From the NCBI GenBank assembly GCA_900617105.1, contig UYFQ01000506.1, forward strand, positions 1-64,000: a stretch of DNA of 64,000 bases, in the 5' to 3' direction. Below the pieces are notes generated by a model, which made no database searches, was not told where the DNA came from, and worked only from the letters and a program-made list of their open reading frames with translations. Positions 3,800-60,549 of this stretch are shown piece after piece. Position numbers and translations under genes: made by a program. Position 1 is the stretch's first letter, and each line of letters begins with the position of its first letter. Source of the stretch: Hydrurus foetidus (taxonomy: Eukaryota).

Positions 3800-5292
3800 T
3801 CAGATTTCCTGATTGTACTTGCCGACCCGGTCACCCAGGCGCGGCAACTTCTTGGCGGAACAGGGCGCGCATGTCGTCCCGGAGCTGGTGCTCTCGACCA
3901 CGACCACGATCTCGGGCTTGTTGGACGAGGCGCGGACCAGCACCCACGAGCCGTCTTCCAGATGCACCCGCACGCCGTTGACGGTGATCACCTCGGTGAT
4001 CTTGCGGCCCAGGATCGAGCCGCCGGCGGCGAACAGGTCCTGGTATTCCTTCACCACGTCATCGACGACGCCGTACTTCACCTCGTCGCCGCAGTGCGGG
4101 CTCATGGTGAGAGACGTGAAGGCCACCGGCAGGGCCTTGCGCATGTCCGACAGCTTCACGCCCGGATTGCGGTCCAGCATGGCCAGGACGGCGGCGGCGG
4201 CGGTCAGGCCGCAGTCATAGCCGTAGCCCAGGTCGCCGTTCATGAAGAAGTGGCCGCTCTTCTCGAAGCCGGCCAGGGCCCCGACCTCGGCGCTCTTGCG
4301 CTTGATGTAGCTGTGGCCGGTCTTCCAGTAGATCACCTTGCAGCCGTGTGCGCCAGGATCGGGTCGGTGGCGTAGAGGCCCGTCGACTTCACATCGACCA
4401 CGAAGGTCGCGCCGGGGTTCAGCGGGGCCAGATCGCGGGCCAGCATCAGGCCGATCTTGTCGGCGAAGATCTCCTCGCCCTCGTCGTCGACCACGCCGCA
4501 GCGGTCGCCGTCGCCGTCGAAGCCGAAGGCCAGGTCCGCGCCATGCTCACGCACGGCCGCGGCCATCGAGTGCAGCATTTCCACGTCTTCCGGGTTCGGA
4601 TTGTATTTCGGGAAGGTGTAGTCGAGCTCGACATCCATGCCGATGACATCCGACACGCCCATGCGCTGCAGGGCGTCGACCGCGAAGGCGCCGGCCGTGC
4701 CGTTGCCGCAGGCGGCGATGACCTTCAGGGGCCGGGTGATGCTGGCCCGCTTGGCGACGTCGGCGATGAAGCGCTCGGCCTCGCCCTCGACCCGGATCAG
4801 CTTGCCGCCGTCGCGTTCCACGAACTTGCCGCCCAGCACGATGTCGCGCAGGCGACCCATCTCGTCGGGGCCGAAGGTGAGGGGGCGTTGAGCGCCCATC
4901 TTTACGCCGGTCCAGCCGTTTTCGTTGTGGCTGGCGGTGACCATGGCCACGCAGGGGATGTCGAGATCGAACTGGGCGAAATAGGCGGTGGGCGACAGGG
5001 CCAGGCCGATGTCGTGCACCTCGCAGCCGGCCGAGATCAGGCCCAGGATCAGGGCGTTCTTGATCGAGCTGGAATAGGAGCGGAAGTCGTGGCCGACCAC
5101 GATCTTCGACAGGCCCAGTTCCTGGATATAGGTGCCAAGGCCCAGGCCAAGCGCCTGGATGCCCAGCAGGTTGATGTCGGGCCCAAACAGCCAGCGCGCG
5201 TCGTATTCGCGAAAGCCCGTGGCCTTGACCAGCGGCTCGTTCTCATAGGCGGCGGTATTGGGAACGAGGTCGGAGCGGGGCGCTGAGAACAT
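3800..5292 (-). CDS. manB: Phosphomannomutase/phosphoglucomutase (frameshift near 4335)
   Basis: Motifs VTASHN, FDGDGDR, FEKSGH, VLVRASSNKP. Confidence 0.9.
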
Positions 5293-5474
5293 CGGGGCTC
5301 GCATCAAGGTTGAGATCGTTGCTTTAGCGACCACGGGCCGGCGCTGCTAGCGTTCTCACATGACATCGATTGTCGAAACGTGACCGTCGCCTAGATAATG
5401 CCCGCCCGCAGCAGATCGTGGACATGCAGGATGCCGACAAGTTAGGTGGCGGGTCCAAAAAGCAGGCTTAGAGT

Positions 5475-5548
5475 TGGAGGCCCGGCCCGGAATCGAACCG
5501 GGGTGCACGGATTTGCAATCCGCTGCGTAACCACTCCGCCACCGGGCC
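5475..5548 (-). tRNA. tRNA-Cys(GCA)
   Basis: GGCCCGGTGGCGGAGTGGTTACGCAGCGGATTGCAAATCCGTGCACCCCGGTTCGATTCCGGGCCGGGCCTCCA; intact cloverleaf and CCA. Confidence 0.95.
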
Positions 5549-9786: not shown

Positions 9787-10338
9787 CTAGACACCGCTCA
9801 GCGCCAGTCCCGGCGCATCTGGATTTCGGGCTCCGCCGCCGTTCAGAGGGCGCTGCATCCATACCAGATCGACCCATCGGCCAAATTTGAAGCCCATGGC
9901 GGGGAAAACCCCCTGTTTTGCAAAGCCCATCGCCGCATGCAGGCCGATGGAGGCGCTGTTGCCGCTATCGCCGATCACCGCGACCATCTGACGCAGCCCC
10001 AGCGCTTCACAGGCCTCGATCAGCGCGGCCAGCAGGGCGCGGCCCACGCCCTGTCCCACGGCGTCTGGCGAAATATAGACGCTGTCCTCGACCGTGTAGC
10101 GATAGGCGGCGCGCAGACGGAACGGGCCGGCATAGGCATAGCCCAGCACGACCCCGTCCCGTTCGGCGACCAGATAGGGCAGGCCGCGATCGAGGAACGT
10201 GGCGCGGCGACGGGCCATCTCGTCCTGCGCGGGCGGGTCTTCCTCGAAGGTGCCCAGGCCGTTGCGGACATTCCAGCCATAGATGGCAGTGATCGCCGCC
10301 AGGTCGGCGTCGGTCGAGGGGCGGACGGTGAGGGTCAT
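9787..10338 (-). CDS. GNAT N-acetyltransferase (phosphinothricin/YncA-like)
   Basis: AYRYTVEDSVY, GQGVGRALL, NSASIGLH, GFKFGRWVD. Confidence 0.9.
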   Translation of the reverse strand: MTLTVRPSTDADLAAITAIYGWNVRNGLGTFEEDPPAQDEMARRRATFLDRGLPYLVAERDGVVLGYAYAGPFRLRAAYRYTVEDSVYISPDAVGQGVGRALLAALIEACEALGLRQMVAVIGDSGNSASIGLHAAMGFAKQGVFPAMGFKFGRWVDLVWMQRPLNGGGARNPDAPGLALSGV

Positions 10339-10341
10339 TGG

Positions 10342-10463
10342 AAAGTCCTCCCCCCGATGGGGGAGGCGGGCCGCAGGGCCGGAGGGGGAAGTGATCCCCG
10401 CCGTTGGCTGACTTCCCCCACCGTCGGCTTCGCCGACACCTCCCCCTTCAGGGGGAGGACCTT
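10342..10463. repeat. GC-rich palindromic intergenic repeat (family A, copy 1)
   Basis: Terminal inverted repeats GTCCTCCCCC...GGGGGAGGAC with nested hairpins; similar to 59498-59622. Confidence 0.85.
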
Positions 10464-10477
10464 GAAGTCAGGCACCC

Positions 10478-12644
10478 TTAAGCCTCCCAACCCTTGTCCA
10501 CCGCCCAGACCGCGAAGGCGTAGTCCAGGGCGATCTCCTTGAGGAAGTCGAACCGGCCCGAGGCCCCGCCGTGGCCGGCGTCCATGTTGATCTTCAGCAG
10601 GACGGGCCGGCCGCTGGTGCTGGCCGGGCGCAGCTTGGCCACCCACTTCTCGGGCTCCCAGTAGGTGACGCGCGGGTCCGACAGACCGCCCGTGGCCAGC
10701 ACCGCCGGATAGGGCTTGGCCTCGACATTGTCATAGGGGCTGTAGCTGGCGATGTAGTCATAGGCCGCCGCGTCCTCCAGCGGATTGCCCCATTCGGGCC
10801 ATTCGGGCGGGGTCAGGGGCAGGGAGGTGTCGCTCATGGTGTTGACCACGTCGACGAAGGGCACTGCGGCGATGATCCCGGCGAACAGGTCGGGCCGCAT
10901 GTTGGTGATCGCCCCCATCAGCAGGCCGCCGGCCGAGCCGCCATAGGCCACGGTATTGGCAGGCTTGCCGTAGCCGGCCCCATGCAGGTGCTCGGCGCAG
11001 GCGATGAAGTCGGTGAAGGTGTTCTTCTTCCTGTCCTTCTTGCCGTCCAGGAACCAGCTCCAGCCCTTTTCAGAGCCGCCGCGCGGGCAGGCCGTGGCCC
11101 AGATCCAGCCGCGATCCACCAGCGAGAAATTGCGGATCGAGAAGCTGGCCTCCATCGAGATGCCGTAGCTGCCGTAGCCGTAGAGGAGCAGCGGCGCCGA
11201 GCCGTCCAGCTTTGTGCCCTTCTTCATCAGGATGAAGACCGGCACCTCTGTCCCATCGCTGGCCTTGGCGTTCAGGCGGCGGGTCTCGTACTGGCTGGGA
11301 TCGTGGCCCGAGGGGATTTCCTGGGTCTTGCGCAGGGTCCGCTCGCGCGTCGCCATGTCGTAGTCGAACCACTGCCGGGGCGTGGTCATGGAGTTGTAGA
11401 CGAAGCGCACCGTGGTGGTGTCGTACTCGTAGCCGCCCTCCAGGCTCAGCGCATAGGCGGCCTCGTCGAAGTCGACGACGTGCTCCTCGCCCGCTTTCGC
11501 CGTGATGACGATGCGGTTGACCGCGTCCACCTTTTCCAGCCGCGCGAAGTGGTTCTGGAAGGCGATCATGCCGACGATCAGCCGGCCGGGCGTGTGGGCC
11601 ACCCAGTCCTTCCAGTGGGTCTTGCCGGGCGTGGCTTGTGGCGCGGTGACCAGCTTCCAGTCGACGGCGCCGTCGGCGTTGGTGCGGATCACGAAGTGGT
11701 CGTTCCAGTGGTCCAGCTCGTAGCGCAGGCCGACCTGGCGCGGCTCGACGACCACCGGCTTGGCGGTCGGGTCGCCGGCCGGGATCAGCAGGGTCTCGCT
11801 GGTCTCCTGGTTGCCGCAGCTGATGACGATGAACGTCTCGGACGACACCGTGCCGACGCCGATGAAGAAGCCTTCGTCGGGCTCGTCATAGATCAGCACG
11901 TCGTCCTTGGCGCCGCCGCGGGCCGGGCGGCGATGGATGCGAGCGGGCGGCCATTGTCGTCCCGGAAGGTCCAGAACAGCCACTGGCTGTCGGGCGAGAA
12001 GCAGAAGTCGCCGGTGGTGCTTTCGACCGGGCTTTCCAGCACCGCGCCGGTCGCCAGGTCCTTGACGTGGATGCGATAGACTTCCGAACCCTGCTCATCG
12101 ATCGCAAAGGCATAGAGCCTGTGGTCCGGCGAATGGCTGGCGGCGCCGACCTGGTAGAAGGCCTTGCCCTTGGCCTCTTCGTCCAGCAGGATCTGCTCGG
12201 CCCCGCCGCCCCTGGGCTTGCGGGCATGGATCGGGTGCTGCGCCCCGGTCTCGAAGCGGGTGTAGTATTCCCACAGACCGTCGGGGGCGGGGACGGAGGC
12301 GTCGTCCTGCTTGATGCGGCCCTTCATCTCCTCGAACATCGCCGTCTGCAGCGCCTCGGTCGAGGCCAGCATGGCCTTGGTGTAGGCGTTCTCGGCGGTC
12401 AGGTGTTCCTTGACGTCGGCCTTGATCAGCGACGGGTCGCGCAGGACCTTCTGCCAGTTGTCGTCCTTCATCCACGCATAGTCGTCGGTCCGCACCCGGC
12501 CCAGCTGCTCGATGCGCTTGGGCTCCCTGGCGACGGCGGGACGGGGCGAGCGGCTTTGGATGCGGACATGGAGATCCCGGGAATGAAAACTGGACTTGAA
12601 GTAAGCACGGCGGCCGCGCTCGTCATCATCTGACGTCGGTTCAT
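10478..12644 (-). CDS. ptrB: S9A oligopeptidase B (protease II) with twin-arginine-like N-terminus (frameshifted)
   Basis: DDYAWM, YGYGSYG, GGSAGG, DPRV, AGHGG. Confidence 0.9.
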
Positions 12645-12786
12645 GATGCTTGTTTCCCCCACCAACGCGTAAACGACCTCTGCGTCAGATCGCCAGCTTG
12701 CGGGCCATGGCAGGTCTGGTCAAACTTATCTGGCGAAGCGCACCGACGATGCGCCCAGCGGGGTGAGTAAAAGAGTAGGGGCGACG

Positions 12787-13635
12787 ATGGTTTACGACCT
12801 GTCCGTCGATCTGATCCAGGCGACGGTTCAGCTTGAGCAGCCGCTCAAGGACGGTTCGCGAACGGTCGGCACCGGGTTCCTGATCGCCGACATCGATCCC
12901 GACGGCAAACCCCGCACCATCCTGATCACCGCCGCCCACGTCTTTGACCGCATGCCGTCGTTCTCGGCCAAGATCGGCTACCGCATCCAGTCCCGTGACG
13001 GCGTCTGGCGCTATGATCCCCAGACCCTGAAGATTCGCGACGGCGACCATCCGCTGTGGGTCAAGCACGCGGGGCGCGATGTCGCCGCCCTCGTGGTCGA
13101 GGCGCCGCCGGAATTCGCCAAGGCGGCGATCCCGCTGGCCTGGCTGGCCAAGGACGACACCTTCAGCCAGTACAAGCTGGGCCCGGGCGACGAGATGATG
13201 GCCCTGGGTTTCCCGCGCGGCCTGTCGGCCAATCCGGCCGGCTTTCCCATTCTGCGGTCGGGCCGCGTGGCCTCCTATCCGCTGGCCCCGGCCACCGCCT
13301 TTCCGACCTTTCTGATGGATTTCTCGGTCTTCCCCGGCAATTCGGGCGGACCGGTGTTCATGGCTGAGGGCGCGCGCCGTCGGCCGGGCGCGACCGAAAG
13401 CCAGGAAGTGCAGTTCATCGCCGGCATCCTGACCCAGCAGGTCGAGCTGTCGGGCGAGCGGCTGGAGATCGGCATCGTCACCCACGCCAAATATATCCGC
13501 GAGACCATCAGCCTGCTGGGCAAGCCGTCGCCCCCGACGGCAGCCGCACGGTCCACCCGGATCGAACCGATGGTCGAGGGCGCGACGGCCGCCTCGGCTG
13601 CGGTCTCGGCCAGCGCCATGGGCGTGGGACGCTAG
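12787..13635 (+). CDS. Trypsin-like serine protease
   Basis: GTGF, ITAAHV, DVAAL, GNSGGP catalytic motifs. Confidence 0.85.
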   Translation: MVYDLSVDLIQATVQLEQPLKDGSRTVGTGFLIADIDPDGKPRTILITAAHVFDRMPSFSAKIGYRIQSRDGVWRYDPQTLKIRDGDHPLWVKHAGRDVAALVVEAPPEFAKAAIPLAWLAKDDTFSQYKLGPGDEMMALGFPRGLSANPAGFPILRSGRVASYPLAPATAFPTFLMDFSVFPGNSGGPVFMAEGARRRPGATESQEVQFIAGILTQQVELSGERLEIGIVTHAKYIRETISLLGKPSPPTAAARSTRIEPMVEGATAASAAVSASAMGVGR

Positions 13636-48982: not shown

Positions 48983-49432
48983 TCAGCTGCGCTTTCTCAG
49001 AGCTCGACTGAAAACCTCGCCGCTTTCGACAAAGCCCGTGGCCAGACAAAATGTGCGCAGGTCTCCGGGCTCGATCGGCGGGTGAAGCACAAGCTCGCCG
49101 CACCCTGCAGAGCGGGCGGCCTGGGAGGCGGCCTTGAGAAGCAGGCGCGCGACCCCGTTTCGACGCCGGTCTGGATCGACGAAGAGGGTGGAGATCCACC
49201 CCACCTTCAGGTCGGCCGTGAGCACCGAATGCCAATGCGCCGCGATGACGCCCGAGGGTGGGCCCCATTCGTCGGCGATGAGCAGGACGCCGGGTTGGTC
49301 CTGAATGGCCCTGAGGCGCCGGGCAAGTTGCTCTCTGGCGACGGTCGGGCCTGCGGCTTTGAGCAGTTGCGCCAATCCGTCCACGTCGCCGCTGTCGGCG
49401 GCTCGAATGGACAGGCCATGGCGGCTCGACAT
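48983..49432 (-). CDS. GNAT N-acetyltransferase
   Basis: ISTLFVDPDRRRNGVARLLL..F..GF. Confidence 0.75.
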   Translation of the reverse strand: MSSRHGLSIRAADSGDVDGLAQLLKAAGPTVAREQLARRLRAIQDQPGVLLIADEWGPPSGVIAAHWHSVLTADLKVGWISTLFVDPDRRRNGVARLLLKAASQAARSAGCGELVLHPPIEPGDLRTFCLATGFVESGEVFSRALRKRS

Positions 49433-49445
49433 GGCGGTTTGCCCC

Positions 49446-50102
49446 TCAGGCGAGGCGGTCGATCAGGAAACGCCCGCCGAGCTGGAGGCCGGGTTCATCG
49501 ATGCTGTGGCCAAGACCGGGCGAAACGTGGGCGGCGACGTCGAAGTCCAGGCCTTTGAGCTGGAGCTGGGCGTGATGCAGCGCTTCGACGGGCAGGACGT
49601 CGTCGCGGTCGCCGTGGACCAGGAGAATGGGCGGCCTGGTCGCGACCTCGACGGCCAGGGCGTCTGGATCGGCCAGCATGCCGGAGAAGCCGATGATCCC
49701 GGCCAGGGCCTTGGCCCGGCGCGGCCCGACATGCAGCGCCATCATCGAGCCCTGGCTGAACCCGACCAGGGCCAGCCTGTCTTCGCTGAGGCCATGGGCG
49801 GCGAGCTGGGCGTCGATATAGGCGTTCAGGGCCGGGGCCGAGACGCGGACGCCCGCCGCGCGCGCTGCCGGCGTCAGGCTGGTCAGGGGCCACCACTGTC
49901 GACCAAGGGGACGCCGTCGCAGGGCTGGGGCGCGTCGGGCGAGGAACAGCGTGTCGGGCAGGGCAGAGGCCCAGTAGGGCGCCAGGTCGATCAGGTCCGC
50001 GCCGTTCGATCCATAGCCGTGCAGGAAGATCACCAGGGATTTGGCCGGGCCGCCCGAGATCGGCGCCGCGCGGGGACCGTCGAGCATTGGGATCTGGGTC
50101 AT
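49446..50102 (-). CDS. Phospholipase/carboxylesterase
   Basis: FLHGYGSNG, GFSQG, HGDRDDV, GHSI. Confidence 0.88.
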   Translation of the reverse strand: MTQIPMLDGPRAAPISGGPAKSLVIFLHGYGSNGADLIDLAPYWASALPDTLFLARRAPALRRRPLGRQWWPLTSLTPAARAAGVRVSAPALNAYIDAQLAAHGLSEDRLALVGFSQGSMMALHVGPRRAKALAGIIGFSGMLADPDALAVEVATRPPILLVHGDRDDVLPVEALHHAQLQLKGLDFDVAAHVSPGLGHSIDEPGLQLGGRFLIDRLA

Positions 50103-50341
50103 GGCGGTTCCTGGTCGGATCGGTTCGGCTGGGGCGATCCTTATAGCCGCGCGGACGCGGCGGCGTCGCGCGCCAAGACTTGACCGGGGTGTTGTCAGGA
50201 TCGTTTTGCGGCTTTCGGACGGTCCTCAGCATCAACAGATAGCCCGATCCCCATCTCATCGGCGTGGCCGCGCCATCGGGAGATCATCCGTGGTGCTCAC
50301 GGCAACCGAGGGCAAAGCCCCCGATTGCCGCAGCAGGACCC

Positions 50342-50767
50342 TTAGGCCTTGGGCAACAGCACGGCGTCGATCACGTGGATGACGCCATTGGTGCAGGCGA
50401 TATCCGCAGTCACAACCTTGGCGCCATTGACCGTCACGCCATCGGAGCCGTCGACATGCACGGTTGCGCCGCCGGCGGTTGCCGCATCCATCACCTTGCC
50501 CGTGACGTCAGCAGCCATGACCTGGCCGGGCAGGACGTGGAGCAGCAGGATCGCCGTCAACTTGTCCTTGTTCTCGGGCTTGACGAGGTCTTCGACCGTG
50601 CCGGCCGGCAGGGCGGCAAACGCCTCATCCGACGGGGCGAAGACCGTGAACGGACCTGCGCTCTTCAGCGTATCGACCAGACCGGCGGCCGTGACGGCGG
50701 CGACCAGCGTCGTGAAGGCGCCGGCGGCAACGGCGGTATCGACGATATCGTGCGTCTGATCAGTCAT
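50342..50767 (-). CDS. Fasciclin (FAS1) single-domain protein
   Basis: [32 protein letters not shown]. Confidence 0.92.
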
Positions 50768-50929
50768 GTTGGGTTCCTTTGGAACGATCGGCATTGGGGA
50801 GGGAGAAGCGATCTTCAGCGACACAAGGCGCGCCGCAGATCGGAGGTAGGGAAGCGCTTGCATCGATACGGCGCGAGCGTGTCGCCACCGCGGAGGGCAA
50901 GTCCCACAGATCCCCGCAGCGGCCCATAC

Positions 50930-50941
50930 GGGCTTTGGGCC
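50930..50941. promoter_or_regulatory. Candidate EL222-type binding site
   Basis: GGGCTTTGGGCC matches RGNCYWWRGNCY, in the divergent fasciclin/CBS intergenic region. Confidence 0.4.
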
Positions 50942-51097
50942 ATCTGGTAACCGCAGCAATCCGCCATCAAGGTCGGGCGTCCTGCGAACAGGCGAACCAT
51001 CGTGCCCCATGGGCAAACCGGCCATCGCCAGATGCGATGGGAGACGGTGTTGGCCGCCTCTTCGTCCTGACCCCATCATCGCCCAGGAGAGATTGCC

Positions 51098-51613
51098 GTG
51101 AAGATCAAGGACAGGCCGGAGTTTCGAAGCAAGGCCGCAGTATTGACGTTCGGGCCCGATGTGCCGGTCGCCGAGGCCGTCGCCGTGATGAGCGAGCGCA
51201 ACTACGGGGCGGCGGTCATCGTCAGTCCCGACCGCAAACCGCTCGGCATCGTGACGGAACGCGATTTCATGCGCCGTCTGCTCAACAAGCGGATGAACCC
51301 GGACGAGACGACCCTCTCCCAGATCATGACGACGGATCTGAAGATGGCCAGGGCCGACGACGACCTTCTCGACTGGCTGCGCATCATGTCCAACGAGAGA
51401 TTTCGCCACCTGCCGGTGGTCGACGACCAGGGCGTGATCATCAGTATGATGAGCCAGGGCGACTTCGTGAGCTATACTTGGCCAGAACTGATGGGGCGAC
51501 TGAAAGAGCAGGCCCGGGCCACGTTCAATGTCAGTCCCTCGTTGGTGATGATTATCGCCTGTGCCGCCATCTTCGCGGCCTGGTCCGTGACGATCTTCGC
51601 GCAACTTCGCTGA
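51098..51613 (+). CDS. CBS-pair protein with C-terminal TM helix
   Basis: [19 protein letters not shown]. Confidence 0.88.
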
Positions 51614-51632
51614 TTGACGGGGACGATCGGAG

Positions 51633-51673
51633 CAAGACAGGCCTGCCACCCGTGGGGTGGCAGGCCTGTCTTG
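51633..51673. terminator. Perfect 19-bp hairpin between convergent CBS and blh genes
   Basis: CAAGACAGGCCTGCCACCC-GTG-GGGTGGCAGGCCTGTCTTG. Confidence 0.75.
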
Positions 51674-51674
51674 A

Positions 51675-52598
51675 TCAGCGCCTGGCCGCAGCCTGCACCC
51701 TTCGCTCCAGCCAATGCGACAACAACAGGTGCGGGGCGGCGACAGCGGCAAGCAACTGAAAGGCCTGCGACGTCAAGTTCGCGTCGACCCTGAACGGGAA
51801 CAGCACCTGCAGCGCCAGCCACCCCACGATCGTGGCGCCTGACAGCAAACCGCCTGTCGCGATCCAGCGCGACCGCGACATGTCGCGGAGTATGCCGCGC
51901 GCCTTATCAAGGTGCAGTGGCGAATGCAGGAAGACAAAAAACAGGGCGAAGCCGATCACGGGCGGGGCGACCGCGAGCACGACGAGGCAGAGCGTCACCG
52001 CTTTCGCCCACGTCCGAGACCCACCCAGCCAGGCTGTCGCGATGCCGACGGCGGTGACAAGCAATGTCACGGGCGCGGCTGCGGAAATGACGCGGACCAA
52101 TAGCGTCGCCCGGTCATCGCTCATCGCGACAAACAGGGCCGCCACCGCCGCCGGATGGCTGATGGTCGGCACGGTGATCACCGCCGCCCCTGCCGCGATG
52201 CGCAGCAGCGGCGCTTCAAGCATTTGCCAATCCTCGCCGAAATGCACAGCCGAGATCGACAGGAACAGGACCAGCGCCAGCAGGGGCAGCGTCATCCACA
52301 GCAGCGCCATGGCGACGGCGATCGCGACGTAGCCGCCGATCACGAGCGCCAGAACGCGCCACCCCGGCGCGATGGCTCTGCGCAGCAAGGCGATATCGTA
52401 GGCGCCGTGTGGCAGGCCGCCGCCCAGAAACAGGGCCGTGGCGACGGTAACCGCCATCGACTGTCCCAGCGGAGCGCCCAGCCATGCCGCCAGCAGCAGG
52501 GCGACTGCGACGGGCCAGAAGACCGGAAGCACCCGGTTGCAACGTCCCAAGGGCGCGTGGCAACCGGGTGCAGTTGGGGCTAACCCAATCCCTTTCAT
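51675..52598 (-). CDS. blh: Brp/Blh beta-carotene 15,15'-dioxygenase
   Basis: [29 protein letters not shown] His motifs; directly downstream of rhodopsin. Confidence 0.9.
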
Positions 52599-52602
52599 GG
52601 GA

Positions 52603-53370
52603 TTAGGCAGCGTAGGCCTTGCCGCCATTGGTGTCGGACTCCGACTTCCGGACCGCGATCAGGAAGATGAGGATGCCGATGCCGGCCTTGGCGATCAGGT
52701 CAGCGATCGTGTAGCCGACCTGGATGGTCGTCTCGACGGCGCCGCCGGTCAGGCCCATGAACGGCGCGAAGAAGACGATCGGGTAGAAGCCCCATGACGC
52801 AACCGTCACCAGGCGAGCCGTGCGGATCAGACCTTGCGCGGCGGCCGGCTGCTCCTTGATCGACTTGCCCAGCCCAACGAACAGCTGGAAGACGATGTAG
52901 AGGAACGGGACCATGGACAGCGAGCCCCACAAGGCGCGCGTCGCCAGATCGGTGGCGATTTCGCCGGGATAGCCCAGCACGATCATCAGCGCTGCGGCCA
53001 GCCCGAGGGAGACCGACTTCGACGTGGTTTCCGCTCGCGACAGGCGCATCACCAGGATCAGTTCGATGAGCAGCAGGGGAACCGTCAGCAGCCAGTCGAC
53101 ATAGCGATAGGCGTCGTTGAAGGCGATGCCGGTCGCCGTCACCACGCCGTCCTTGAACGTGTAGGCGTCGTGCCAGCTCTCGAAGATGCGGAAATAGTGA
53201 TAGGCCGCGATGGCGGTGACAACGCCCGAGATGGTCAGGGCCGTGCGGTAGGCCGACGCGACTTGTGACCGGCTGAGCCACAAGAACATCGTGGCGGCGG
53301 CCATCGCCGCAAAAGCGAATGAAAACGCGTTGTAGATCAGCTCGTATTGGAAGGGTGTAACAGTATCCAT
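52603..53370 (-). CDS. Xanthorhodopsin-type light-driven proton pump (DTE)
   Basis: FNDAYRYVDWLLTVPLLLIE (D/T/E), AAYHY, LWGSLS, ADLIAKAG Schiff-base Lys. Confidence 0.95.
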   Translation of the reverse strand: MDTVTPFQYELIYNAFSFAFAAMAAATMFLWLSRSQVASAYRTALTISGVVTAIAAYHYFRIFESWHDAYTFKDGVVTATGIAFNDAYRYVDWLLTVPLLLIELILVMRLSRAETTSKSVSLGLAAALMIVLGYPGEIATDLATRALWGSLSMVPFLYIVFQLFVGLGKSIKEQPAAAQGLIRTARLVTVASWGFYPIVFFAPFMGLTGGAVETTIQVGYTIADLIAKAGIGILIFLIAVRKSESDTNGGKAYAA

Positions 53371-53572
53371 TGAAGTCTCCGTCGCAGTTGTCCGCAGCGC
53401 GATTGCGCCGGGCAGGGGTGTTGCGGAGGTCGCACGATCATAGTGAGACGATCTTCGGGCCCCCGAAGCGTCGTGACAGCGGCATTACTGGAAACATGAA
53501 TGTCGACCGCGCGCGCAAAACTCGGAGCGCGCAGCCATGCCGCTATGACAACCTGGATGGGATAGGCTGCGG

Positions 53573-54277
53573 TCAAGTTTTCGGCGATACGGACCTTCTG
53601 CCGTATCGGCGACAATGACGATCTAGGCCGGCCTCGACGGCGAGGCGGATCAGGTCGGCTGTCGTATGCAGCCCCAGCCGGTTCATCAGGATGGCGCGGT
53701 GCATCTTGACGGTCTTCTCGGCCAGATTCAGGTGGGCCGCGATCTGCTTGTTCAGCAGCCCGCTGGCGACCAGCTTGAGCACCTGGCCTTGCCTCGGCGA
53801 CAGCGACTTGACCATTTCCGCAGCCCGGATCCGGCGCATGCTCGACGGCGCCGCCGCATCGGCGTCGATTTCGACCTGCGAGCCGAGGAAATACAGCAAG
53901 GCGTCTTCCTCGTCGTAGATCGGCGCGACAAGGACGGCGTTGCGAAAGGGTTGGCCATTGCGCTTGTAGTTCAGGATCTCGACGAGCACGGGACGATGTT
54001 CGCGCACCCCGCGACGGATTTCCTCGGTCAGCCACGGCTCGGTCGCCGGTCCCGACAGGAAACGGCAGTTTCGCCCCACCACCTCCTCGGGCGGATAGCC
54101 CGTGAGCTCGCAAAAGGCTTCGTTGCAGGCGATGATCGGATTGTCGGGCAGTCGCGGGTCGCTGATCACCGAAGGGATCGGGCTATCCGTCACAAGCCGC
54201 ATATGGCGGCCGTCAGCGATACAGACATTGGCGTCTATCGCCAGATCAGTGCCTGTTTTGTTCATCCTGGAGACCAT
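53573..54277 (-). CDS. EL222-like LOV-LuxR HTH blue-light transcription factor (true stop may be near 53623)
   Basis: [50 protein letters not shown]. Confidence 0.93.
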
Positions 54278-54553
54278 GCCAGATGCAGAACGCTCTTACA
54301 CTCGTTTTGATGCCATGCCGCCAATCTTGGCAGTGTCGCTTCTGTCCGCGCGTCGTTGTCATGCGCCAAGCATGCCGTGCTGAGCAAAGGTCAATAAAAT
54401 TAGATCGTTAAAGACTGTCATGCGTTGCATGAACACATCTGGGGAGAGCGTTTTGGCTCGTGACCTTACCCCAACCTTGGACCAGGTCGGGCTGGGACTT
54501 TGGCCAGCTTCGTCAAGCGGCCGAACAACCGGAGAGCTCTGGGAAATCCGTCC

Positions 54554-54630
54554 TGGTGGTTGGAGGCGGGATCGAACCGCCGACCTGTGGGTTATGAATC
54601 CACCGCTCTAACCATCTGAGCTACCCAACC
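54554..54630 (-). tRNA. tRNA with CAT anticodon (probably elongator tRNA-Met)
   Basis: GGTTGGGTAGCTCAGATGGTTAGAGCGGTGGATTCATAACCCACAGGTCGGCGGTTCGATCCCGCCTCCAACCACCA; G1-C72 paired. Confidence 0.92.
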
Positions 54631-59498: not shown

Positions 59499-59622
59499 AA
59501 GTCCTCCCCCTGAAGGGGGAGGTGGTCGCGCAGCGACCGGAGGGGGAAGTGATGCGGAGGGGCGGCTGATACTTCCCTCTCCGTCGCCTGTGGCGACACC
59601 TCTCCCTTCAGGGAGAGGACTT
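59498..59622. repeat. GC-rich palindromic intergenic repeat (family A, copy 2)
   Basis: AAGTCCTCCCCCTGAAGGGGGAGG...CCTCTCCCTTCAGGGAGAGGACTT; similar to 10342-10463. Confidence 0.85.
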
Positions 59623-59623
59623 G

Positions 59624-60549
59624 CTACTCGATAAACGCCTCGACCAGCTCCCGCGTGCCGACCAGGAACGCATCCGCCACCAGGGCCAACGGTCGCACGT
59701 CGGCTTCCGACTTACCCGCCCGGATCAGCTCGCCGAACCGCCCATAGAGCCCGGATACTCCGCCTCGGCGGCCTGGACCACCGGCTGGCCGTCGATCTCG
59801 ATGATGGCCCCGCCACTCGACAGGCGCAGGGTCCCCTCGTCGGCGACGACCGTGATGTCCCAGGTCTGGGGGCCGGTCTGCAGGAAGTCGAAGTCGGCGG
59901 TGATCCTGACGCCGTCGATGTCGGTCATGGCCAGGTGCGCCGCGACCGGCGACTGGACGTTTTCCGGAACCTGAAGCCGCGCGTCGGTGACGAACACTTC
60001 GCGGGGCATGATCTCGGTCAGGATCGACAGGGCGTTGATGCCCGGATCAAAGACGCCCAGGCCGCCGGCCTCCCAGATCCAGGTCTGGCCCGGGTGCCAG
60101 CGGCGCACGTCCTCGCGCCACTGGATGTCGACGCTGCGAAGGGTGCGAGCGGCCAGCCACGCCTTGGCGGCGGGCACGCCGGCGGCGAAGCGCGAGTGCC
60201 AGCTGGCGAACAGGGTCACGCCCTGCTCGGCGGCCAGGGCGGAGAGGTCGCCGACCTCGCCCACGGTCGCGCCGGGCGGCTTTTCCAGGAACACGTGCTT
60301 GCCGGCCCGCAGGGCCGTCAGCGCCGACTCGCGCCGCACCTGGGGCGGGGTGCACAGGGCGACGGCGTCCAGGGCGATCCCGCTCTGCAGCATCTCCTCC
60401 AGCGACTCGAAGGCGGGGACGCCCACGTCCGGCCGGCTGCGGCTGGCCACGGCGACCAGCTCCAGGCCCGGATCGGCCGCTATGGCGGGGATGTGCTGAT
60501 CCCGCGCGATCTTGCCGACCCCGACGATCCCGACCCTGATGATGCTCAC
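59624..60549 (-). CDS. Gfo/Idh/MocA sugar dehydrogenase (galactose/arabinose 1-dehydrogenase-like; C-terminal frameshift)
   Basis: GVGKIARDQH, CTPPQVR, LEKPPG, WREDVRRWHPGQ, FDPGINALS. Confidence 0.88.

Follow-up and report, generated by a model that had tools for sequence, protein, structure and literature searches.

A predicted EL222 box upstream of a xanthorhodopsin gene in a cassette that Caulobacter likely acquired from Sphingomonas

What controls a bacterial rhodopsin gene that lies next to a gene for an EL222-type light-responsive regulator? This question is raised by a cassette within a 64,000-nucleotide stretch of Caulobacter-like DNA (the window), where an EL222 orthologue is followed by a DTE-motif xanthorhodopsin (XR) gene and blh, and then by a CBS gene on the opposite strand and a fasciclin gene. 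EL222 serves as a standard tool of optogenetics, and to our knowledge few mechanisms for the light regulation of bacterial rhodopsins have been worked out. This type of cassette has been described before in one Sphingomonas strain, Sphingomonas glacialis AAP5, which has the same module (Kopejtka et al. 2022, PMC9897461, cited throughout from the part of that source available); the present analysis suggests in addition a conserved box upstream of the rhodopsin gene, a second box toward fasciclin, and that the AAP5 leader RNA is a covarying, end-paired fold. The reading considered probable here is that the XR-blh cassette, likely derived from Sphingomonas, is controlled by its EL222 orthologue acting as a blue-light activator of initiation at a palindrome upstream of the rhodopsin promoter.

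The cassette proved genuine and non-chimeric, because a complete one-contig genome (G001) is collinear with the window (95% over 13.6 kb) and a single independent contig of 10,557 bp from run X7 covers 49400-54571 with 129 differences; the chimeric or contaminant origin that had been raised as a concern is thereby ruled out. All five genes were found at the positions proposed by an earlier, sequence-only reading. Its view that the ORFs are essentially intact holds for the genes and their key residues, but two bases are missing at the LOV-HTH stop codon, and the order of CBS and fasciclin after blh was likewise given correctly, but CBS is encoded on the forward strand. The GC3 of the cassette (0.81-0.87) is just slightly under that of the neighbouring genes, and composition is therefore uninformative.

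The regulator gene (53624..54277, reverse strand) encodes a predicted LOV-HTH protein of 218 amino acids whose best PDB match is EL222 (E 1e-84, over residues 27-218), in line with its earlier description as EL222-like. It consists of PAS_9 and GerE domains (PF00196 at residues 157-213) with no extra domain, and carries GRNCRFL at 68 (C71 intact), GSQVE at 132 and the recognition helix EKTVKMHR at 187, so that the photoactive Cys, the GSQ Gln, the LuxR/GerE HTH and the full-length likeness expected of an EL222-type protein are all present. In the window the ORF runs on to 53573 (53573-54277, reverse strand) through the two-base deletion, which would add 16 residues to the C-terminus. Because the two bases are present in G001 and in contigs of runs X2, X5 and X7, this tail most likely stems from an error in the assembly, and the true C-terminus is most likely at residue 218, as in EL222.

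The rhodopsin gene (52603..53370, reverse strand) belongs to the xanthorhodopsin family, its nearest solved structures being psXR, Gloeobacter rhodopsin and xanthorhodopsin. Its key residues are D92-T96-E103, H58, G149 and the retinal-binding K228, and G149 aligns with the WG of xanthorhodopsin (XR G156) and Gloeobacter rhodopsin, that is, with the glycine of the antenna fenestration. Motif, histidine, Schiff-base lysine and nearest structures thus agree with the DTE assignment made from the sequence, and an outward proton pump is predicted. The assignment of blh (51675..52628, reverse strand), a beta-carotene 15,15'-dioxygenase gene, was also upheld, as its product passes the curated cut-offs of PF15461 and TIGR03753 (127.7 bits, cut-off 95.25); its histidines are at 74, 129, 235, 239 and 300, and translation may in fact begin downstream of 52628. 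With regard to carotenoid supply, crtY was found in all five carriers tested, and crtZ, crtB, crtI and crtY are clustered in G001, the CrtZ-like gene being part of that set. Since a reaction-centre gene (PF00124) was found in none of the five carriers tested, XR would be the sole photosystem in Caulobacter carriers.

The CBS-pair protein (51098..51613, forward strand; recognized by domain scan, with a hydrophobic C-terminal tail) is a frequent neighbour of the module; its gene converges on blh, diverges from fasciclin and, being on the forward strand, lies outside the operon. The fasciclin gene (50342..50767, reverse strand; PF02469) encodes a single domain, and its AAP5 counterpart is co-induced by light together with XR (PMC9897461).

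The origin of the cassette is likely to be found in Sphingomonas. In quick LG+G4 trees, on which the tests also rest, the Caulobacter copies of XR and EL222 are nested among Sphingomonas homologues, and AU tests reject monophyly of the Caulobacteraceae (p 2.6e-4 and 1.5e-5 for the XR and EL222 trees, respectively). The cassette is patchy, being present in 10/127 genomes of the genus, and XR-type genes occur in 20/401 genomes of the family. The comparison with Sphingomonadales homologues therefore bears out the proposal that the cassette was acquired. A tRNA-Met gene (54554..54630, reverse strand) was correctly noted beside it, with its 3′ end at 54554, 277 bp upstream of the LOV-HTH gene. This tRNA was rejected as an attachment site of a genomic island: its 3′-end 19-mer has one match in the window, the tRNA itself, leaving no direct repeat, no integrase was found among the 45 window ORFs scanned, and it adjoins the cassette in only 3/10 carriers, the others having the cassette elsewhere. 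Plasmid carriage was rejected too, with just two Polymorphobacter plasmids found, at 66% identity.

The evidence on regulation starts from two predicted EL222 operators. The first, an 18-bp palindrome at 53588..53605 (reverse strand), has a 12-bp core that fits the EL222 consensus RGNCYWWRGNCY, taken from PMC10521638, at 10/12 positions; the second, at 50927..50944 (reverse strand) and tied to fasciclin, fits at 12/12. The consensus alone is unselective, the window containing 6 perfect matches to it and 761 with two mismatches, and the XR box departs from it at two of twelve positions. With a matrix built from seven sites of other genera, the two cassette boxes take the top two places in the 64-kb window, by a small held-out margin (12.5 versus 11.0 for the next match). 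A natural EL222 site shares the RGCAG half-site deviation, and EL222 can activate from a site overlapping the −35 element (PMC10521638, PMC5001607). When neighbourhoods were surveyed, the box was found upstream of XR in 13/13 family genomes with both EL222 and XR and in 0/6 informative XR genomes lacking EL222, and among further loci in 38/40 with tandem EL222 versus 4/22 with none in the fetched DNA; the genomes are related, and these counts are therefore not independent. The box remains at XR where the regulator gene lies 3.3 kb (G178) or about 1.95 Mb (G360) away, and it keeps a fixed spacing both from a conserved TA and from the 5′ arm of a leader helix, P1. In divergently arranged loci the matrix finds the box in only 1/10, and near EL222 genes of genomes without XR in 1/9. 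CBS was rejected as a direct EL222 target, the box being missing near an unlinked CBS gene in G178, in G074, and upstream where fasciclin is absent. A wider regulon was set aside as well, since most one-mismatch matches inspected in G001, G096 and G266 fall inside genes; one extra exact intergenic match in G001 is absent from the other two, and the crt region of G001 holds no box scoring >7. This last result counts against the model, as in AAP5 all retinal-pathway genes were found to be activated by light (PMC9897461). Because the EL222-type box is conserved and the homologous AAP5 locus is light-induced, though only below 16 C (PMC9897461), the cassette is likely light-inducible, as first proposed.

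Downstream of the first box, a weak −10 element is predicted at 53559..53564 (reverse strand), its TA nearly invariant and at constant spacing to the box (alignment A1, T45 and A46), and transcription is predicted to start at about 53552, which centres the box near −44.5, an activator distance; a sigma-70 scan returned no promoter. The leader (53470..53552, reverse strand; 83 nt) is a predicted three-way junction homologous to the 86-nt AAP5 transcript. Its closing helix P1 pairs 53552-53538 with 53484-53470, and the end-paired fold is conserved with covariation; P1 was not recovered by RNAalifold, each of its arms can also self-fold, and Rfam gave no match at E<=5 over 53470-53552. One genome (G526) carries all three published AAP5 primer sites, which fall on P2 and the 3′ arm of P1; its box is at −240..−223 and its P1 at −187..−102, against −185..−99 for the published AAP5 leader. 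With regard to a possible RNA thermometer, the Shine-Dalgarno sequence at the ribosome site is mostly paired at 7-37 C, with only a small shift from 0.21 to 0.11 unpaired.

In the proposed mechanism, blue light would form an FMN-cysteine adduct, upon which the LOV-HTH protein would dimerise and bind DNA, as is established for EL222. Bound to the first box, abutting the −35 element like LuxR-type activators, it would drive XR-blh from the weak promoter, and the second box would drive fasciclin. Blh would cleave beta-carotene made by crtB, crtI and crtY elsewhere on the chromosome, and the retinal-loaded XR would pump protons out, possibly with a xanthophyll antenna. Less surely, the first 83-91 nt would fold end-paired and outlast mRNA decay, and the 86-nt AAP5 RNA would be abundant in dark phases because this leader survives. 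More speculatively, cold dependence could come in addition from a LOV dark recovery that is slower at low temperature.

The published AAP5 data were read differently by their authors. There, XR is induced by light and cold, only below 16 C, and the EL222-like gene is proposed as regulator; the model holds that a promoter constitutive in the cold is followed by a dark stop after the 86-nt leader, an attenuator or switch, and that read-through is allowed by light, with the EL222-like protein as a possible mediator (PMC9897461). The AAP5 leader far exceeds read-through (about 3.5%), coverage breaks off sharply in darkness, and the ratio of the two is set by light (PMC9897461); the covariation of the leader fits such a role, and the self-folding P1 arms offer an alternative conformation. 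The box, however, lies upstream of the start and outside the leader, the place of initiation activators, and no U-tract follows P1 nor is there a terminator-like site at the leader 3′ end. Moreover, 63 other XR loci, many of them with the box, have no such leader, and sampling at 1 h and 6 h in 12 h/12 h cycles (PMC9897461) is compatible with a stable remnant. The read-through model is thus judged unlikely for this locus.

It is more improbable still that the palindrome just serves the LOV-HTH gene as an RNA hairpin or terminator, or is bound by a different regulator, with EL222 as a hitch-hiker controlling stress genes. The palindrome is indeed self-complementary and lies 15-35 bp past the LOV-HTH stop in tandem loci; the strict box pattern also matches 15 genomes that lack EL222, 11 of which belong to genus g18, where matches are often intergenic and full EL222 was found in 0/5 genomes tested, and 9/22 EL222 genomes have no XR-type gene. 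Yet the palindrome is followed by no U-tract, conserves its would-be loop letters, fits the EL222 consensus, remains at XR even with the regulator gene in another place, and has a second copy at fasciclin. Scarcely credible, finally, is an intact cassette whose rhodopsin is silent in Caulobacter or serves sensing or pH homeostasis instead of energy supply: AAP5 XR was silent in all conditions first tested, with a sensory role proposed (available part of PMC7762795), and no transcript of this organism was seen (raw RNA runs X8 and X9 gave one read each), but the DTE motif, His and Lys are preserved, the XR sequence is 82-98% conserved among carriers, no transducer gene accompanies the cassette, and the XR homologue (78% identity in G526) is part of the type of locus for which a light-dependent gain in ATP and growth was subsequently demonstrated. 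Of the other runs, X2 and X3 yielded RNA contigs that mostly derive from relatives <95% alike, and X1 is probably DNA.

Beyond activated initiation by the EL222 orthologue, a two-layer switch, so far undescribed, may tentatively be envisaged. The orthologue, at a class-II-type promoter, would integrate light and cold through temperature-dependent dark recovery, and the 83-91-nt three-way-junction RNA would have a function in its own right, as a conformational switch or a small RNA that is released, and would have come into Caulobacter from Sphingomonas. If true, this would replace the read-through model and make control of rhodopsin phototrophy a defined natural job for the EL222 family. At this locus, operator, start site and leader fold are all defined as exact candidates, in an organism closely related to the genetically tractable Caulobacter and free of the confounding bacteriochlorophyll system of AAP5, and activation of initiation and read-through are separable with few mutants.

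Light harvesting as such has precedents within the order. Caulobacterales, which the sequence-only reading took for a chemoheterotrophic lineage, are no longer seen as purely so, with photosynthesis genes in 35/347 species (PMC12700997) and an XR-crt-blh operon in one marine metagenome-assembled genome (PMC13043013). The former survey covers bacteriochlorophyll genes, the word rhodopsin occurring 0 times in its main text and four supplements, and the latter mentions neither LOV nor EL222; the cassette thus adds rhodopsin phototrophy to a family whose recent phototrophy survey left rhodopsins unmentioned. The rhodopsin protein shows nothing unusual against xanthorhodopsin-family pumps, sharing the DTE motif, His, Lys and antenna Gly with psXR (9WFA), Gloeobacter rhodopsin (6NWD), xanthorhodopsin (3DDL) and Kin4B8 (7YTB). 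With the AAP5 locus the cassette shares the EL222-like LOV-HTH gene, about 300 bp of conserved intergenic sequence, the fasciclin neighbour and the leader. AAP5 differs in its dual phototrophy, having a photosynthesis gene cluster, and the available text and supplement of PMC9897461 name no operator or RNA fold. In one Sphingomonas locus (L082) a crtI-like gene and an oxidoreductase follow blh, whereas here CBS takes that place and fasciclin is inverted. EL222 of Erythrobacter litoralis (PDB 3P7N, 8A5R) has the same LOV-HTH architecture, Cys, signalling Gln and recognition helix, and its consensus is likewise fitted by the sites predicted here, which differ from it as longer, 18-bp palindromes with TAC/GTA flanks, located at a rhodopsin promoter.

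All five genes that the sequence-only reading had placed at 50342..54277 are found there. The LOV-HTH gene (53624..54277, minus strand) encodes a protein that matches EL222 across residues 27-218 (E 1e-84) and keeps the GSQ motif, the EKTVKMHR helix and Cys71, in agreement with the proposed EL222-like regulator with an intact cysteine. The adjacent rhodopsin (XR; 52603..53370, minus strand) possesses D92-T96-E103, H58, G149 and K228, and its closest solved structures are xanthorhodopsin-family pumps, which favors the predicted DTE xanthorhodopsin-type pump; the blh call was borne out by scores exceeding curated cut-offs. The CBS gene is present but not co-oriented, as it lies on the plus strand, convergent with blh. 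The open reading frames (ORFs) keep their key residues; at the LOV-HTH stop the window lacks two bases that are present in the complete genome G001 and in contigs from sequencing runs X2, X5 and X7, most likely through an assembly error. A chimeric block is ruled out, because G001 is collinear with it at 95% identity and a single X7 contig covers 49400-54571; fetched locus L079 shares 91% identity with the 4.7 kb on the cassette's right-hand side. Elsewhere in the window, two tRNA-Cys genes (2724-2796 and 5475-5548) lie 2.7 kb apart around a phosphomannomutase-like gene, within a stretch of lower GC, and a REP-like repeat of about 120 bp (59499-59624) recurs dozens of times in G001, in either orientation, at 70-92% identity.

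Rhodopsin matches occur in 33 of 401 family genomes, 20 being XR-type (62-98% identity) and 13 distant (33-35%). Genus g6 (loci L027-L036) has a distant rhodopsin, 33-35% identical to the window XR, in 11 of its 13 genomes. EL222 orthologues (E<=1e-45) were detected in 22 of the 401 and accompany XR in 13; of these, 11 have the regulator immediately upstream of XR, G178 has it 3.3 kb away, and in G360 it is unlinked. Within the genus, blh-XR-EL222 forms a single DNA match in at least 10 of 127 genomes among the matches listed; the five-gene form is found in five of these ten carriers, CBS without fasciclin in three, and neither gene in two, one of which sits on a short contig. A CBS subfamily with a hydrophobic tail (window 51098-51613; loci L119, L125 and L241-L244) was noted in 9/401 family genomes, eight of them with EL222 and XR, and in Brevundimonas-type loci CBS follows blh in the same direction; these proteins may play a part in energy sensing. 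A second type of XR module (L051-L056 from G360, G144, G069, G283, G033 and G052, and L050 from G378) has a TonB-dependent receptor after XR and no blh at the locus. In G378 a CarH-like MerR-B12 regulator adjoins this module, with a homologue near XR in G283; the gene content points to a further light switch and, perhaps, to uptake of retinal or carotenoids.

Three of the ten carriers have the cassette beside tRNA-Met, but others have it next to dxs, murG-like genes or IS6-family transposases, and no second copy of the tRNA end was found in the 64-kb window. In L039 (G266) the cassette's EL222 is immediately preceded by a DXP synthase gene (9849-11693), whose product opens the route to isoprenoids. 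Transposase genes of the IS6 family border the cassette in L040 (G367; 10704-11420) and L041 (G321; 4545-5297 and 12194-12892); in L041 they stand on both sides in inverted orientation, resembling a composite transposon. The cassette is therefore either mobile or has been acquired repeatedly, and integration at the tRNA lacks support.

The suggestion that the cassette was acquired is upheld by phylogeny. In a quick XR tree (96 rows) the window copy falls inside a starred 31-row group that, Brevundimonas-type copies excepted, otherwise consists mostly of Sphingomonas and other Sphingomonadales. A single clade for the 13 Caulobacteraceae XRs is rejected (AU test, 44 of the 96 rows, p 2.6e-4), and a quick EL222 tree (76 rows) is concordant (starred 30-row group, p 1.5e-5); the tests were run under LG+G4, the trees were midpoint-rooted, and the tested groups were named only after the first XR tree was known. 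Transfer is well supported, and Sphingomonas would be the donor, as the Caulobacter copies are nested and the cassette is patchy.

An 18-bp palindrome, TAC-N12-GTA, precedes XR in 13/13 family genomes with EL222 and XR and in 0/6 with XR alone (truncated G052 dropped), the pattern having been defined after viewing these sequences. Its core agrees with the EL222 consensus RGNCYWWRGNCY (PMC10521638), and the window's predicted box (53588-53605) has one RGCAG half-site, a deviation shared by the natural "peak B" site described there. Among 77 of 80 further contig loci (L079, L080 and L107 dropped as training duplicates; two of the 77 too short), the box score exceeded 12 (99th percentile of the background, 10.0; n=1079) in 38/40 tandem, 2/3 non-adjacent and 1/10 divergent loci, and in 4/22 without EL222 in the fetched DNA; RGNCYWWRGNCY alone gave 37/40, 1/3, 2/10 and 8/22, respectively. 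Speaking against the operator reading, a strict box pattern matched 10/13 EL222+XR genomes but also 15/388 others, the reversed-pattern control matching in nine genomes. Eleven of the 15 belong to genus g18, where box-like palindromes, many intergenic, occur in 11/44 genomes without an EL222 match (L203-L213); a full EL222 was found in 0/5 g18 genomes examined, and these palindromes may be sites of another regulator. In XR-less genomes only one of nine EL222 genes has boxes within 1.5 kb, the remaining eight forming a distant clade in the EL222 tree. At L075 (G377) a rhodopsin-less EL222 gene lies between two boxes (1472 and 2134) that stand ahead of two further genes, presumably one for a small membrane protein and the other for a general-stress-like protein.

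A matrix built from seven sites of other genera ranks 50927 first in the 64-kb window (14.7) and 53588 second (12.5), the next scoring 11.0. The box at 50927 is tied to fasciclin, as it is present in 5/5 five-gene carriers, recurs near fasciclin in G056, L092, L131 and L132, and is absent where CBS stands alone.

A 32-row alignment shows an almost invariant TA downstream of the XR box, at constant spacing from it. Taken as -12/-11, this TA would centre the box near -44.5 and put the start near 53552; at or close to that start begins a helix (P1) whose partner arm stops 100 nt before the ATG. For Sphingomonas glacialis AAP5, PMC9897461 reports an 86-nt RNA mapped to -185 to -99. Genome G526 contains all three reported AAP5 primer sites, and in it the box spans -240..-223 and P1 spans -187..-102; the AAP5 RNA thus coincides, give or take a few bases, with the domain that P1 closes. 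Across 29 leaders (L089, L090 and L095 excluded as divergent or misaligned; L128 and L151 outside the alignment) P1 is 88.7% paired, against 19-63% in slid controls, and 7 of its 15 pairs show two-sided changes (3.7 on average after shuffling); a second helix, P2, scores 32 double-change cells versus 10.9, although kinship among the sequences inflates these comparisons. Fold z-scores were -3.4 to -5.6 in 5/5 leaders folded. Instead of P1, RNAalifold selected P2 together with a hairpin formed within the 5′ arm, which advises caution on P1 and may indicate an alternative conformation. Rfam gave no match over the leader (53470..53552, minus strand), and a leader model recovered 4/4 additional Caulobacter carriers of the Sphingomonas type but matched 0/65 other XR loci.

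In the model proposed by the AAP5 authors, the promoter is constitutive in the cold and read-through depends on light (PMC9897461). Against this, the predicted operator is located upstream of the start, both ends of the leader RNA are paired, no terminator was found after the leader (nor any U-tract), and the AAP5 transcript samples described there come from light-dark cycles. For these reasons we favor a leader that would be a stable piece surviving mRNA decay. Here, the light-activated EL222 orthologue would most likely bind the box and switch on initiation for both XR-blh and fasciclin; activation by EL222 from a site that overlaps -35 is on record (PMC5001607). Beta-carotene would be supplied by a separate crtZ/B/I/Y cluster, which lies apart from the cassette in G001; crtY is present in 5/5 carriers examined, and no reaction-centre gene was found in these five. 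EL222 is reported to recover fast in the dark, at 20 C within about 40 s (PMC11928941), and, speculatively, a slowing of this recovery by cold could add cold dependence.

In a search that took in few subscription journals, PMC9897461 alone tied EL222 to rhodopsin in Sphingomonas, and no literature joined EL222, rhodopsin and blh. The main text of PMC9897461 lacks the term "binding site" and two of its supplement files lack "EL222"; "rhodopsin" is absent from the portion of PMC12700997 consulted and four supplement files, and PMC13043013 describes a single Caulobacterales MAG with an XR operon. Compared with the AAP5 locus, for which the EL222-XR module is on record (PMC9897461), the cassette is the same module, once described, in a new host, to which are added a precise predicted operator, a leader whose fold is conserved, and a challenge to the published model of regulation that can be put to the test.
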